DNA from: a virus
Virus record (IMG/VR): IMGVR_UViG_3300010371_000028
Span: 68,778 to 132,777 of that record
DNA: 64,000 nt
Strand: one strand, 5' to 3'
Shown here: positions 1,856 to 54,771 of the stretch, piece after piece
Layout of the letters: the number at the start of each line of letters is the position of its first letter
Numbering within the stretch: the stretch's first letter is position 1
Position numbers and translations under genes: made by a program
Notes under the pieces: generated by a model
Databases searched by the model: none
Seen by the model: only the letters and a program-made list of their open reading frames with translations
Told to the model about the DNA's origin: nothing

Positions 1856-2082
1856 GCGGGCACCTCGGCGTCCTCGATGAGCAGGATCGTCTCGAGGAGG
1901 TCTTCGGCGACGGTGAACGTGATGGTCCCGTCGACCTTCTTGAACACCCGCAGGTCGCCGTCGCGCTTGTGGTAGGCGGCGGTGATCTCGAGTTCTTCGA
2001 GGAACTCGGCCTGGTCGGGCGTGCCGGACGGCGGCAGGCTACGCCAGGTGACCTTGAAGAGCCGGTCTTCGGTCTCGATCAC
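1849..2082 (-). CDS. Hypothetical protein
   Basis: Acidic small ORF with typical codon use. Confidence 0.6.
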   Translation of the reverse strand: MIETEDRLFKVTWRSLPPSGTPDQAEFLEELEITAAYHKRDGDLRVFKKVDGTITFTVAEDLLETILLIEDAEVPAC

Positions 2083-2112
2083 GGTGTCTCGTCTCGGTGC
2101 GTGGTGGGTGGG

Positions 2113-2400
2113 TCAGCCTTCGACGCGCTCGGGCCAGTGCCAACTGCCGCCTTCGTGGCCGAGTTCGCTCTGCATGGCGCCCTGGTGGAAGAACATGCCG
2201 GTCGGGTTCAGGACCGCGAGGCCGACTGGTACGGCGATCTGGCTTCGGTCCGCGTTGCTGATGCCGTCCGGGTACTCGCCGACCTCGGTGATGATCGCGG
2301 CGCGGCATGCGGGCGGGAATGCCTGCGTACCGTCCTCGCGGATCGGGGTGCCGTGGGCGACGTAGTGAACGATCTGGCCGATGCTGGGCTGCTGGCCCAT
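2113..2400 (-). CDS. Phage hypothetical protein (PSIGxIVHY type)
   Basis: N-terminal QPSIGQIVHYV and C-terminal WHWPERV resemble a common small phage family. Confidence 0.65.
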   Translation of the reverse strand: MGQQPSIGQIVHYVAHGTPIREDGTQAFPPACRAAIITEVGEYPDGISNADRSQIAVPVGLAVLNPTGMFFHQGAMQSELGHEGGSWHWPERVEG

Positions 2401-2813
2401 CAGGCGCCGGCCTCGGCGGTCGGCTCGGTCGCGGCGGGCTCCGTGGTCGGAGCCTCGCTGGCCGGCCCGGCGACCTGCTCGGTCTCGGCCGGGGTGCTCG
2501 GCGCGGCGGTCTCGACGGCCTGCCCGGCGTCGGTCTTGGCCTCGGTGGCGACAGCCTCGGCGTCGTGCTCCGCGTTCTCGGCGACCGGTTCGGCGGCGGT
2601 CTCGGCCTCGTGCACGACCGACTCCGCGTCCGCTGCGGCCTCGTGCTCGACCACGGGCAGGTCGGACTCGACGACCGACTTGACCTCGTCGAGCTTCTCG
2701 CTCGCGGCGTGCGCGACGGCCTGGACCTCGGCGTCACCGTGGCCGAGAAGCTTCGCAACCTCGGCCTTGGCCTCGGCGAGGAGGTGGTGCAGGTGCTCGA
2801 AGACGCCGGACAT
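2400..2813 (-). CDS. Ala/Glu-rich low-complexity hypothetical protein
   Basis: ATG at 2813 with GGGAGA RBS; TGATG coupling to next gene. Confidence 0.6.
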   Translation of the reverse strand: MSGVFEHLHHLLAEAKAEVAKLLGHGDAEVQAVAHAASEKLDEVKSVVESDLPVVEHEAAADAESVVHEAETAAEPVAENAEHDAEAVATEAKTDAGQAVETAAPSTPAETEQVAGPASEAPTTEPAATEPTAEAGA

Positions 2814-2814
2814 G

Positions 2815-3018
2815 TCAGTTCTCCCATGGTTGAAGTTGGTGTTCGCCAACGCGGCGCAGCACGACCTCGAGGTCGTGCTTGCCCCAGCGGCCGGCGATCA
2901 GGATGTAGCCGCCGTTGTCCGCGACGGTCTCGACGACCACGGTCGCCTCATCGAGGTACGGGTCGGAGGAGCGGACGGCGAGAATGTCGCCGGGGCGCGG
3001 GGGCCGATATTGAGGCAC
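2815..3018 (-). CDS. Hypothetical protein
   Basis: ORF track. Confidence 0.5.
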   Translation of the reverse strand: MPQYRPPRPGDILAVRSSDPYLDEATVVVETVADNGGYILIAGRWGKHDLEVVLRRVGEHQLQPWEN

Positions 3019-3257
3019 AGTTCGGTCCCCGAGGTCTCGGGTGCAGGGCGGCGCTGGTCGTTCGAGTAGTGCGGTGCTGATGTGCTGGTCTCCGGTCGTG
3101 CTAGCGGTTCATGTGCGCGAGGATCTCGCCGAGCATGCAGACGGTGCGGATCAGGACGATCGCGGCGAGGCCTTCGCAGAGCACGGCGAGGACACCGATT
3201 GCGATCAGGCCGTGCAGGAGCAGGCGCCGGAGCGCCCGGCTGATTCCGAGCGGTCGG

Positions 3258-3548
3258 TCACGGCTTCGCCTTCCGGATCGTGGTCCAGTCGATGGCGATC
3301 CGGATGATCCGCTGGCGTTCGTCGATCCCGACGACCTCGGCCGTGGCCTCGCGCTGGTCGGCCAGGTCGCAGGCGTCTACGAGGTCGCCGATCGATGGGG
3401 GCCAGTCGCAGTCGTCGACGTCCACGACGCGCCGGGCCGAGTTCTCGGTGTGCGACAGGTCGACGGCGACACGGCAGCGGGCCGGCTGGGCCGCGCCGAG
3501 GAGAGCGGCAATCGCAAGGTCAGGGCGGCCGGGAGTCAGGTCACTCAT
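3258..3548 (-). CDS. Hypothetical protein (small beta-barrel-like)
   Basis: Start overlaps stop of upstream gene; GDLVDACD...AEVVGID...IAIDW. Confidence 0.55.
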   Translation of the reverse strand: MSDLTPGRPDLAIAALLGAAQPARCRVAVDLSHTENSARRVVDVDDCDWPPSIGDLVDACDLADQREATAEVVGIDERQRIIRIAIDWTTIRKAKP

Positions 3549-3990
3549 CAGCGGTGGCCTCGTCCTCAGCACGGCGCTTGGCCGCAGCCTGGACGCTGGC
3601 GTGGTTGTAGAGCCACAGCGGGTTGCGGAACTGGCCGCCATACGCCTCATTCGCGCTGGTCGCGGCCTGGATTTGAAAGTCGATCGGCAGGCCCGTGACG
3701 CGCTGACCCAATGCGCTGATGGCCGCGTTCAGGAGCGCCCACTTCGCATCGCGCTGGTGCGCGGCCTTGTACCCGGGGAACAGGGCGTGGAACTCGTCGT
3801 CGTCGAGCATGAGCCGCACGTCGACGTCGCGCCACTGCTTGCTGTGGGTGGATGAGCCGACATGGTAGGCGGTCTCGCCGAACGCGTCGTAGATCCACTG
3901 CCCGAAGGCTTCGAGGAGCGTCGTCTCGGGCATGCCGGTGCCGATGAGGATCGTCGGGCGTTCCGTCGGCGTCTCAGGTTCGTCGGTCAC
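3541..3990 (-). CDS. Minimal nucleotidyltransferase (Pol-beta superfamily) like protein
   Basis: hGS-x7-DhDh motif: YHVGSSTHSKQWRDVDVRLMLDD; third acidic candidate in IDFQIQ. Confidence 0.6.
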   Translation of the reverse strand: MTDEPETPTERPTILIGTGMPETTLLEAFGQWIYDAFGETAYHVGSSTHSKQWRDVDVRLMLDDDEFHALFPGYKAAHQRDAKWALLNAAISALGQRVTGLPIDFQIQAATSANEAYGGQFRNPLWLYNHASVQAAAKRRAEDEATADE

Positions 3991-4256
3991 TTCGCCCGCC
4001 TCAGGGTCGCGCCTTCGAGCCAGCTCTTCGCTTTGCAGGCCGGGCACCTTAGGGCCGGAGTCACCGTGAGCGGCTCGGTGAGCACGATCGTCCACTCGCC
4101 GCGTCCATTGCCGTGCCCGCGGAACGGGAAGTTCGCCGCACACCAGGTGCCGTCGGTCCGCTGATGCGTCCACCTGACGCCAGTCGGGCGAGACGAACCG
4201 TCGCGGTAGAGGAGCTCGTACGCGTCGGTCGTCGGCGGGTGGGTGATGGCAGTCAA
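3987..4256 (-). CDS. Hypothetical protein with Cys motifs (DUF6527-like)
   Basis: WTIVLTEPLTVTPALRCPAC; TTG start with GAGGCAGG RBS. Confidence 0.45.
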   Translation of the reverse strand: MTAITHPPTTDAYELLYRDGSSRPTGVRWTHQRTDGTWCAANFPFRGHGNGRGEWTIVLTEPLTVTPALRCPACKAKSWLEGATLRRAK

Positions 4257-4323
4257 AGCCACCTGCCTCGATGAGGGTTTCCCGCGCGAGATCGTTCCGT
4301 GGATGCCGCGCGGGAAAACTAAG

Positions 4324-4394
4324 TGGCCGTGGCAGGGGTCGCACCTGCGTCTCGGCCGGGGGGAGAGGCCGGATTCTCGCTGAACTACACGGCC
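4324..4394 (-). ncRNA. tRNA-like cloverleaf (non-canonical; 9-nt anticodon loop, no CCA)
   Basis: Acceptor GGCCGTG/CACGGCC, D-arm GTTC-AGCGA-GAAT, CGGCC-TCTCCCCCC-GGCCG, T-arm GCAGG-TGCGACC-CCTGC, discriminator A. Confidence 0.65.
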
Positions 4395-4446
4395 ACGCAT
4401 CCCGACACCCGGACCCTCGGCCAGGTGCGGGAAGTCTTGGGAAGCC

Positions 4447-4472
4447 GAAAAGCCGCCCGTAGGCGGCTTCTC
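4447..4472 (-). terminator. Intrinsic terminator/attenuator-like hairpin
   Basis: AGAAGCCGCC-TACG-GGCGGCTTTT on minus strand. Confidence 0.6.
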
Positions 4473-4572
4473 AAGGCGGGCGCTCAGTCCGGTCCGGCCG
4501 GAAGCCGGACGAGCACCACTTCCCGGCCAAACCGGCACGGGCAATTCTTCGGCTGGGCGCTATGCGCTCAAG

Positions 4573-4824
4573 CTACTGCCGAGAATAGGTCATCGAACCG
4601 ACCTGCGCAAACATCTGGGTCCGCTTGGCATGTCTGACCGGATTCCGGTGGCGCTGCTCCCGTTCGACGCGCCCGAGCTCCGTGATGTCGAGGACGAGGA
4701 TACCGTCGCCGCGCTTGTAGACCGTCACGAGGCGCGCGTTCATCCACCGCCTGACGGTCCGTTCGCCCTTACCCAGCCAGAGCGCCGCTTCGGCGACGGT
4801 GAGGTAGGTCGTGGATTCGGTCAC
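4573..4824 (-). CDS. HTH DNA-binding protein (MerR/excisionase-like)
   Basis: YLTVAEAALWLGKGERTVRRWM; GTGA overlap with upstream gene. Confidence 0.75.
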   Translation of the reverse strand: MTESTTYLTVAEAALWLGKGERTVRRWMNARLVTVYKRGDGILVLDITELGRVEREQRHRNPVRHAKRTQMFAQVGSMTYSRQ

Positions 4825-5636
4825 GAGGACGCCCCTGTGGTGACGTGTCCGCCGCTGAGGAGCTGAACCAGCCAACTATACTCAGACTCTTGATACAGCC
4901 TGCCGCAGCCGCCCGCGCGCTCGGCGCACTCCACGTACCAGGGGCGGCCCGCGAACCCCTCCTCCTGGACCAGGGTGAGCATGTCGCACGAAGGGCACGG
5001 CGCCGGCAGATGCCTGCGGACCGGCCTGTTCTTGACCATGCCGACTGCGTCGGAGTGCAGGCGCCAGATCTCCTGGGCGAAGTCCCCGGCGCACTCGGTG
5101 CGCTCGATCATCGCCTTGTAGTTGACGTTGAGGTATTCGACGGACGCGGTGAGGTCCGTGGAACGGTCACCGGTGTCGTGGGCCGCGACGTGGCGCAGGT
5201 GCTGGCGCAGGTCGTCCTCCCACGCGGTGACGGTCCGGCAGATTTCGTCCTGGTGGTCCGCGCCGGGGCTGGGGGAGGGCGCGACGTCGGAGCGTCCGCG
5301 GCGTTCCTCGTCGGCCGACGCGGTGCGCGTGAGGTACTTCATGGAGTTGAGCGCCTTGTATGCGAGCGGCAGTTCCCGCAGCGCGCCGCGGGCGATCGAT
5401 GCGCATTTGCGGCACAGGACGGGCTCGCCGGGCCACGGCTCGGTTTCGACGGGTGCGGGTTCGGTGCCGTGACAACCAACGCCGATCCAGCGGGCCATGG
5501 CTTTGTCGTGGTCTTCGATGGCGTGGCGCCAGCGGGAGTTGCAGCGGAAGGTGCACGGCCCTGCGCTGGGGACGTGGGTTTCTTCGGGGGCGGCGGTTTC
5601 CGAGTGCGGCCAGTACGGGCGCTGGTATTGAGGCAT
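4821..5636 (-). CDS. Zn-finger phage protein, putative late transcription regulator
   Basis: CRKC, CPSC and ECAERAGGC motifs; position just before late-type region, coupled to HTH gene. Confidence 0.55.
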   Translation of the reverse strand: MPQYQRPYWPHSETAAPEETHVPSAGPCTFRCNSRWRHAIEDHDKAMARWIGVGCHGTEPAPVETEPWPGEPVLCRKCASIARGALRELPLAYKALNSMKYLTRTASADEERRGRSDVAPSPSPGADHQDEICRTVTAWEDDLRQHLRHVAAHDTGDRSTDLTASVEYLNVNYKAMIERTECAGDFAQEIWRLHSDAVGMVKNRPVRRHLPAPCPSCDMLTLVQEEGFAGRPWYVECAERAGGCGRLYQESEYSWLVQLLSGGHVTTGASS

Positions 5637-5826
5637 GACGACTCCCAGGGGACGTACCATGAGGGAAGTCGCCTTCGATCCGTCAGGCCGTCCGGGTTGG
5701 TGCCCTGGGCGGCCGTGATCGTCTAGCCCGAGTGTGAGGTTTCCGGGGCGCCCGGTCAAGCCGGGTTCGCGCTGGCGGACGCGCCGGTTGCGCCTACGGG
5801 TTGAGTTGCAGGCTCCGAACACGCGA

Positions 5827-5855
5827 AGAGCCCCGGCCGTGGAGACCGGGGCCCT
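5827..5855 (-). terminator. Intrinsic terminator-like hairpin
   Basis: AGGGCCCCGG-loop-CCGGGGCTCT on minus strand. Confidence 0.5.
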
Positions 5856-6009
5856 CGTGCTTGCGCCTATCCACCATGCCCAGCGGTCGCGTCCGCCGAC
5901 GTGTCATCACGGTACTGCGCGCCGGGCTCGCGTGAAGAGGTTCAGCGCAAGATCTAGCTGCCGTGGTCCGGGGACTCGCGGACCACGGCAGCAGGTCCAT
6001 TGCCTGCCG

Positions 6010-6378
6010 TCAGCGGAGCGAGAGGAAGTAGATCTCCCAGAGGACGTCGTACTCAGGATGATCCTTCTCCGCTTTGGCGATCTGCAGAACGGCCATGCGC
6101 GCACCCTCGAGCCACGCCTCGATTCGCGGGTCCGTAGCTCCGGTGGCATCATGCCGCATCCCGTAGAACAGTTTGTACTGTCGAACGATCTCTTCCTTGG
6201 CTGTGATATCGGCCAGGGCCCGCTCTGGGTTCCATCGCCGGATATGCCGGGCGGAGGGTTCGTCGTAGGTGTAAGCGTCCGGTTCCCAGTCTGCGGCGGC
6301 GGCTTCAGCGAGCGCTCTGGCTTCGCGTAGCCGCGCCTCGACGAACCTGATCAGTTGCGTGGACGTCGTCTCCTCCAT
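6010..6378 (-). CDS. DUF6221-like phage protein
   Basis: LIRFVEARLRE...ARHIRRWNPERALADITAKEEIV...KDHPEYD. Confidence 0.7.
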   Translation of the reverse strand: MEETTSTQLIRFVEARLREARALAEAAAADWEPDAYTYDEPSARHIRRWNPERALADITAKEEIVRQYKLFYGMRHDATGATDPRIEAWLEGARMAVLQIAKAEKDHPEYDVLWEIYFLSLR

Positions 6379-6466
6379 GCCTCAGTCTCGCACCGGGTTG
6401 ACGTCCAAGTCGGATCGGGCGCGACACTGCTGACCCTGTATCGCTACTGAGTGGCGCACAGCGCGG

Positions 6467-54569: not shown

Positions 54570-54771
54570 GACGACCGCCGAAGCTGAGCCGCGCCGCCAG
54601 CGCGATGACCCCGACCGCCGCGAAGCAGTAGACAATGCCCGCGACCGAACGGACCGTGCCATGAGTCCCGAGCGCGACACCGAACGCGGCTAGCGCCACC
54701 GGCAGCAGCGCCAGCAGTACGACACCGCGCCAGCCAGAGCGGGTAGCGGAACGCGCGAGGCGGCTACTCAT
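54562..54771 (-). CDS. Small 2-TM membrane protein
   Basis: GAGGAGG RBS; two hydrophobic segments. Confidence 0.6.
   Translation of the reverse strand: MSSRLARSATRSGWRGVVLLALLPVALAAFGVALGTHGTVRSVAGIVYCFAAVGVIALAARLSFGGRRG

Follow-up and report, generated by a model that had tools for sequence, protein, structure and literature searches.

What is the tRNA-shaped element in this phage DNA: a working tRNA gene, an RNA kept for its shape, or a tRNA gene that has stopped decoding? The window analysed here, a stretch of 64,000 nt, covers the latter half of a 132,777-bp IMG/VR virus contig (record G000) with a G+C content of about 69–70%, and its source is a temperate actinophage from soil. A sequence-only reading of the locus had described a full cloverleaf with stems of 7, 4, 5 and 5 bp, correct T8–A9 spacing and several odd loops, and had taken this combination to suggest a maintained tRNA mimic. 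Our preferred answer, to which we give a probability of about 0.6, is that the cloverleaf is a phage tRNA gene that no longer decodes, a relic or pseudo-tRNA in a variable slot of the genome.

The cloverleaf lies on the minus strand, where it runs from 4394 to 4324, and its 71 nt form the stems and the T8–A9 spacing that had been described (Table 1). All 21 stem pairs are intact, 19–20 of them Watson–Crick and one G–U, and one spacer base separates the D arm from the anticodon arm. Direct reading also bore out the 5-nt D-loop, the 9-nt C-rich anticodon loop, the T-loop TGCGACC and the lack of CCA. The bases of the tertiary contacts read directly as in place are U8, A14, G15:C48, G53:C61, T54:A58, C56 and R57. 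The acceptor/T helix is intact over 12 bp, and position −1 is a U. The anticodon loop can alternatively be drawn as a 7-nt CUCCCCC closed by a U–C mismatch, with U33, CCC at 34–36 and C at 37.

Table 1. Parts of the cloverleaf and neighbouring features, in window positions.
Feature	Position	Strand	Basis or remark
tRNA-derived cloverleaf, 71 nt	4324..4394	-	ARAGORN, Rfam RF00005, free-energy minimum, shuffle controls
Acceptor stem, 7 bp	4394-4388 / 4331-4325	-	
U8-A9	4387-4386	-	
D arm	4385-4373	-	stem GUUC/GAAU, 4 bp, one G-U
D-loop AGCGA, 5 nt	4377..4381	-	without GG, without in-register A18-G19
Anticodon arm	4371-4353	-	stem CGGCC/GGCCG, 5 bp, all G-C
Anticodon loop UCUCCCCCC, 9 nt	4358..4366	-	
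Variable loop AGAC, 4 nt	4352-4349	-	
T arm	4348-4332	-	stem GCAGG/CCUGC, 5 bp
T-loop UGCGACC (G55 variant)	4337..4343	-	keeps T54, C56, R57, A58
G53-C61, pair closing the T-loop	4344/4336	-	kept
Discriminator A73	4324	-	followed by CUU where CCA would stand
Extra 117 nt relative to L008, carrying the cloverleaf	4310..4433	-	alignment; direct repeat TTCCCGC at 4433-4427 and 4316-4310
HTH_17 / excisionase-like or MerR-like regulator, upstream gene	4573..4875	-	Pfam HTH_17 E = 8.6e-5, below curated cut-off; PHROG 2474 and 66
Post-HTH region with two GC-rich hairpins (~4450-4469, ~4488-4510)	4440..4572	-	conserved in L001 and L006
10-bp hairpin, other edge of the slot	4278..4315	-	3' of the cloverleaf, 5' of the Zn-protein gene
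Zn-protein gene (89-aa Cys-rich protein), downstream	3987..4256	-	without family match; homologues in L001 and L008
Small NTase-like protein gene	3541..3945, start approximate	-	sole support for the name: DNA match to Arthrobacter phage RadFad gene 51, annotated nucleotidyl transferase

Sequence scoring of the kind that the sequence-only reading had called for identified the element as tRNA-like with both programs used. ARAGORN labels it tRNA-Gly(CCC); its drawing slides the anticodon arm by one position, giving four anticodon pairs plus the U–C mismatch and a 7-nt loop with U33 immediately 5' of CCC. The Rfam tRNA model (RF00005), run on 101 nt, matched over the full length (model positions 1–71) with 42.3 bits and E = 2e-8, above the gathering cut-off of 29 bits, which makes the element a structural member of the family. 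A score of 42 bits falls within the low end of tRNA scores in the arrays of a related phage. The RF00005 match was absent when the whole window was scanned at the gathering threshold, when 601 nt were scanned at E <= 10 and when the phage's own genome was scanned; these misses on longer DNA are probably due to speed filtering within the programs. Rfam scans that take in long DNA can in this way overlook tRNAs that are GC-rich and odd.

That a cloverleaf of this quality arose by chance in DNA of 70% G+C seems extremely improbable. Its minimum-free-energy fold is the cloverleaf itself (-30.3 kcal/mol, z = -2.1). Sixty dinucleotide shuffles of the 133-kb genome yielded 0.13 ARAGORN calls per genome, none of them equally clean, and a scan of the genome for 5-bp T arms that have a T-loop motif and lie between the strands of a 7-bp acceptor stem returned a single site, the cloverleaf, where 0.05 were expected. 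Together with the Rfam E-value and the conserved tertiary bases, these controls outweigh the one observation that favours chance, namely that ARAGORN makes a second, obviously false call in the window. That candidate (54663–54740, minus strand, 78 nt, tRNA-Gly(GCC)) has six G–U pairs, leaves several stem positions unpaired and lies within what appears to be a coding frame; it was rejected as a false positive. By its sequence, the cloverleaf at 4324–4394 clearly descends from a tRNA gene.

The T-loop had been described as altered; its sequence was correctly given, and the alteration turned out to be a natural variant. A tRNA-Val(GAC) on a 235-kb jumbo-phage contig (L133, IMGVR_UViG_3300031997_000001), in which positions 1999–6393 hold an array of 21 mostly CCA-ended tRNAs, has exactly the same 17-nt T arm. 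Seven of the 21 carry G55, and all seven have AG for GG in the D-loop. For a wider view we used 663 distinct ARAGORN tRNAs from all fetched loci, a comparison set whose composition is biased by the fetching: the D-loop has AG without GG in 45 of the 55 tRNAs with G55 and has GG in 593 of the 601 with T55. The co-variation is seen at loci L133, L099, L104 and L043, and the G55/AG pairing also occurs in cellular tRNAs of Planctomycetes and Verrucomicrobia genomes. We therefore reject decay of the T-loop, because the same T arm stands in the L133 tRNA-Val and G55 co-varies with the D-loop AG. On this comparison, TGCGACC is a G55 variant found in apparently working tRNAs.

The short D-loop and the missing CCA are equally familiar features. 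Members of the G55 class in L099 have 5-nt D-loops (AGCAG, AGGAG and AAGAG, all ending in AG), a Planctomycetales genome holds apparently normal G55-type tRNAs with D-loops of this length, and the CCA end is missing in nearly all of the ~37 tRNAs listed for G002, a related phage. Of the four oddities, three are ordinary or have been seen before. The elbow of the cloverleaf combines G55–C56 in the T-loop with a D-loop that has neither GG nor an in-register AG; it reads AGCGA instead of ending in AG, which puts the partner that G55 usually has out of register. The real defects number three: the D-loop, the anticodon loop and an acceptor end unlike that of tRNA-Gly. As a separate observation, ARAGORN called tRNA-Met(CAT) genes with 5-nt D-loops and without bases 8–9 between acceptor and D stems at L061, L071, L086, L091, L104 and L107; the sources are mostly Planctomycetota, plus one Bacteroidia and one Actinomycetes, and one of these genes has the T-loop TGCGACC.

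The anticodon loop bears on whether the element could be an unorthodox tRNA that still works, either as a tRNA-Gly(CCC) that reads GGG with an anticodon stem of six "pairs" or as a four- or five-base frameshift type. The ARAGORN drawing, in which U33 directly precedes CCC in a 7-nt loop, suits the first version, and of the Gly codons in long ORFs of the phage, 20% are GGG. For the second, anticodon loops with an extra nucleotide cause +1 frameshifting in SufB2-type tRNAs. Against both stands the lack of the combination expected of a decoding tRNA, a 7-nt loop with U33 and a purine at 37. In the biased comparison set, ARAGORN draws 7-nt anticodon loops in 655 of 663 tRNAs, and position 37 is a purine in 654 (98.6%); in the cloverleaf it is C. 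Among 441 acceptor/T-arm matches in 2 Mb of fetched DNA there was no genuine 9-nt anticodon loop, all apparent cases being a normal 7-nt loop plus one more base pair. A frameshift suppressor would be expected to have one extra loop base and to be intact and chargeable in all other respects, and here two extra bases, C37 and a deviant D-loop are found.

The acceptor end does not fit the label tRNA-Gly. In E. coli, GlyRS needs U73 and C2:G71. Of 41 comparison tRNA-Gly, 31 start with GC and 33 have U73, and none combines the G1–G2 and A73 of the cloverleaf, which lacks both the G1–C2 start and U73. With the elbow partner missing from the D-loop and no retention in relatives (below), a working tRNA appears quite improbable. 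Overall similarity was tried as a guide to the isotype and rejected: in the biased comparison set the best identities are tRNA-Met(CAT) and tRNA-Gly(UCC), both 56/71, and tRNA-Val(GAC), 54/71, which rank Met, Gly(UCC) and Val as equals. An initiator-tRNA reading was likewise discarded on inspection, as G1–C72 is paired and the anticodon stem has no run of three G–C pairs.

On the minus strand the cloverleaf follows a DNA-binding-type gene, the HTH gene and ~130 nt with two GC-rich hairpins, and it is itself followed by a 10-bp hairpin, the Cys-rich gene and the NTase-like gene. The DNA-binding-type protein upstream of the HTH gene has 279–333 aa (PHROG 1568/1467). The region at 4440–4572 is probably the terminator region of the HTH gene, and the variable slot starts directly downstream; a scan of 3900–4950 for consensus promoters and terminators flagged none, 4440–4572 included. 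The cloverleaf had been placed at the head of the late transcript, which the gene order contradicts: it sits after the terminator-like region of the HTH gene and before a small two-gene unit.

Both flanks of the slot have features of their own. The ~130-nt post-HTH region is near-identical in relatives (window 4440–4572; L001 ~2185–2312; L006 ~1150–1254), and the DNA downstream of it diverges. The hairpin on the other side is kept in three phages (window 4278–4315; L001 2907–2945; L008 ~734–782). Its inner pairs differ in L008 in a way that, by sequence, looks like compensatory change; the hairpin may have a regulatory or processing role in a 5'-UTR. Six further homologues of the Zn-protein were found (P0002–P0007); Pfam and PHROG searches returned no match for the NTase-like protein. 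A functional tie between the cloverleaf and the NTase-like gene was considered and dropped, given the lack of family matches, the presence in L001 of the Zn-protein/NTase pair without an intact cloverleaf and the presence in L008 of the Zn gene without either.

What does the slot hold in related phages? Relatives were reached through the neighbouring protein genes, and four extend to the end of the HTH gene (L006, L001/L002, L008 and L003). The nearest by neighbouring protein, L006 (81% identity), stops just short of the slot. L001/L002, from the provirus record G001, have 68–78% protein identity, and L001 is the closest relative that covers the slot. Here the post-HTH hairpin region matches nearly base for base and then diverges, and the slot has only a 3' tRNA-type fragment, consisting of the variable loop and a T arm whose loop is the canonical TTCGAAT and whose stem has one T too many; ARAGORN and Rfam both find no tRNA in it. 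Some 200 nt further on, an unrelated 116-aa ORF (PHROG 10659) precedes the conserved hairpin, beyond which lies the Zn-protein gene. In L008 (73% identity) the terminator-like hairpin is joined directly to the downstream hairpin and the slot holds no tRNA; this phage keeps the Zn gene and has neither cloverleaf nor NTase gene. The 117-nt difference from L008 fits either an insertion in the phage studied or a repeat-mediated deletion in L008. In L003 (record G002, 48% identity) the slot contains a T5orf172/MUG113-type gene and then a canonical tRNA-Met(CAU) whose T stem is also GCAGG/CCUGC.

Since the slot contains nothing, a 3' fragment or a normal tRNA-Met in three relatives, we take it to be a tRNA site of this phage group with changing content. 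The numbers of tRNA matches per record range from ~40 in G002 through one above the cut-off plus three weak ones in G001 to the cloverleaf alone in the phage studied, and the part of the lineage around this phage looks tRNA-poor and eroded. Other odd elements were noted in G001 (L012 1500–1588 and ~1600–1680, both minus strand; L014 1503–1575; L016 1500–1571). They include an 88-nt tRNA of 47 bits with ~17 extra bases in the anticodon region, a 24.7-bit cloverleaf that has a CCA end and a 7-bp anticodon stem and lacks bases 8–9, and fragments comprising a T arm only. The T5orf172/MUG113-type (GIY-YIG-like) gene of L003, at 4939–5503, ends 3 nt before the tRNA-Met, an arrangement that resembles that of homing-endonuclease genes in phage tRNA clusters.

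A further reading of the cloverleaf is that it is an attP copy, or a recombination scar, of a tRNA gene from the host. In its favour, the phage is temperate and encodes a tyrosine integrase, an excisionase-like HTH gene adjoins the cloverleaf, the fragment in L001 is of the kind found in att sites, and the segment is flanked by a 7-nt direct repeat. An attP would call for an integrase gene close by and for a host tRNA whose 3' half it matches exactly. The integrase lies ~46 kb away, a whole cloverleaf is present rather than a 3' half, and a degenerate variable-loop/T-arm scan of 185,579 species genomes returned many ordinary tRNAs and none sharing the 3' half of the cloverleaf. We consider an attachment-site origin very unlikely.

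The rival that deserves most discussion is that of the sequence-only reading, a non-decoding mimic under maintenance. It would act as an RNase P/Z signal that keeps apart the transcripts of the HTH gene and of the Zn-protein/NTase pair, or be a decoy for, or a substrate of, a tRNA-directed enzyme. Perfect stems with deviant loops fit this proposal, as do the U at −1 beside an intact acceptor/T helix and a position that falls exactly between the terminator-like region and the hairpin at the 5' end of the next operon. Related phages also have other non-decoding tRNA-shaped elements. One example, at G002:C1:94616–94683 (minus strand, within L035), scores 31.3 bits and has an intact acceptor stem and T arm; its D arm has 6 bp, and its "anticodon" stem of 5 bp ends in a 4-nt loop, with which it cannot decode.

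Conservation points the other way. Three relatives cover the slot, and the cloverleaf is kept in none of them: L001 and L008 have a fragment or nothing and L003 has a tRNA-Met instead, so that none of the three offers a copy with compensatory changes. The Zn-protein/NTase pair of L001 and the Zn gene of L008 do without it. In IMG/VR, exact patterns taken from the anticodon, T and D arms and from the 5' end brought up no full-length homologue. None of the 55 IMG/VR matches to the D-arm 15-mer and none of the 67 to the 5' 15-mer lies in a tRNA, and of five matches to the T-arm 18-mer one is a tRNA, the L133 tRNA-Val. A blastn search of 50,697 phage records gave no full-length relative of the cloverleaf. 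A separate search of species-genome contigs with the neighbouring protein found no relatives. With no homologue from these searches there is no covariation to weigh, and anticodon nucleases are not known to target a poly-C loop.

The sequence-only reading had made maintenance depend on homologues with compensatory changes and on a discrete RNA or processing site; as to the first half, the phage records and IMG/VR patterns searched contained no such homologues. It was right that the element is tRNA-like and that the deviations lie in the loops. The case for maintenance is weakened by a T-loop variant that is natural, a lack of CCA that is normal in G002, the reduction of the element to a fragment in L001 and its absence from L008, and a position other than the head of a late transcript. 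On balance, a maintained mimic with a processing or decoy role seems unlikely. More doubtful still is the broader idea of a selected mimic whose anticodon loop was deliberately disabled and which belongs to a wider, undescribed phage set with G55-type T-loops.

We return to the relic as the preferred reading. The element is tRNA-derived by its RF00005 match, its decoding determinants are lost by comparison with other tRNAs, and synteny indicates that relatives dispense with it; by sequence, the loss or truncation of the slot content in both close relatives covering it (L001 and L008) supports this reading. In the course of events that we propose, an indel would have cut the D-loop down to 5 nt and taken away the partner that G55 normally has there. 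The anticodon loop would have expanded into a C-rich loop without a purine at 37; the acceptor end does not suit the isotype that the "anticodon" suggests. The acceptor/T-arm helix and most tertiary-contact bases are retained, and the intergenic slot in which they lie changes fast.

The main counterpoint is that 21 intact stem pairs with deviant loops would also fit selection for shape. A further one is that the T-loop "defect" works elsewhere and that 5-nt D-loops occur in apparently normal tRNAs. One D-loop deletion and a few anticodon-loop changes suffice, however, so that recent inactivation explains the intact stems as well as selection does. Given read-through from the upstream gene, RNase P would be predicted to cut the 5' end and RNase Z to cut after A73. 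The cloverleaf could then serve passively as a cut site between two transcription units, with no need to be charged or to enter the ribosome. This role is possible because, judging from known RNase P and RNase Z substrates, a transcript that has an intact acceptor/T helix and U at −1 and lacks CCA would be expected to remain cleavable. Such a passive site would shade into the maintained mimic discussed above.

The value of the finding lies mainly in annotation: gene finders will label the cloverleaf tRNA-Gly(CCC), probably wrongly. Four contents in four relatives also provide one data point on the turnover of phage tRNA slots. Should the cloverleaf prove to be processed and maintained, it would bear on the role of non-decoding tRNA look-alikes in phages.

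Among known systems, viral tRNA-like structures and YrlA mimics share with the cloverleaf a tRNA shape that does not decode. In the Rfam consensus of the tymovirus element, G likewise stands where U55 of the T-loop would be, but the cloverleaf scores only 13.2 against a cut-off of 40 with Tymo_tRNA-like, and it had no Rfam match to YrlA. In the same context, we repeatedly came across a tRNA-like RNA, left uncalled by ARAGORN, in which a GGWTACTTCG-type motif precedes a canonical T arm. This RNA occurs at L049, L050, L053, L054, L062, L064, L069, L074, L098 and others (Acidobacteriota), at L059, L070 and L100 (Nocardia) and at G002 1382–1452 and 2024–2090. Identifying this RNA as a Y-RNA-like mimic was not accepted: the resemblance is unconfirmed, and Rfam at the gathering threshold gave only a 32.5-bit tRNA match, in L054.

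Suppressor tRNAs of the +1 frameshift type (sufD/SufB2) likewise have an expanded anticodon loop with a run of C. They have 8-nt loops and keep the synthetase identity of the parent tRNA, and SufB2 has a modified G37; the cloverleaf differs in its two extra bases, its lack of a purine at 37 and its unmatched acceptor identity.

Closer in sequence are the tRNA-Val(GAC) genes with an A18/G55 elbow (L133 3212–3285; L099; L104). The T arm is identical to that of L133, the D stem and variable loop are similar, and A73 is common to L133 and L104 (L099 has U73). These tRNAs have a D-loop with a 3' AG, a 7-nt anticodon loop, A37 and mostly CCA, in contrast to the AGCGA loop and 9-nt anticodon loop of the cloverleaf.

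The last comparison is with the tRNA genes and pseudo-tRNAs of actinophage and jumbo-phage clusters. The cloverleaf departs from them in standing alone, in its poly-C expanded anticodon loop and 5-nt D-loop, and in that no orthologue was found. It resembles them in being tRNA-derived, in lying in an accessory region and in having no encoded CCA; the corresponding slot of a relative holds a tRNA-Met, and the relatives carry good and eroded tRNAs side by side.
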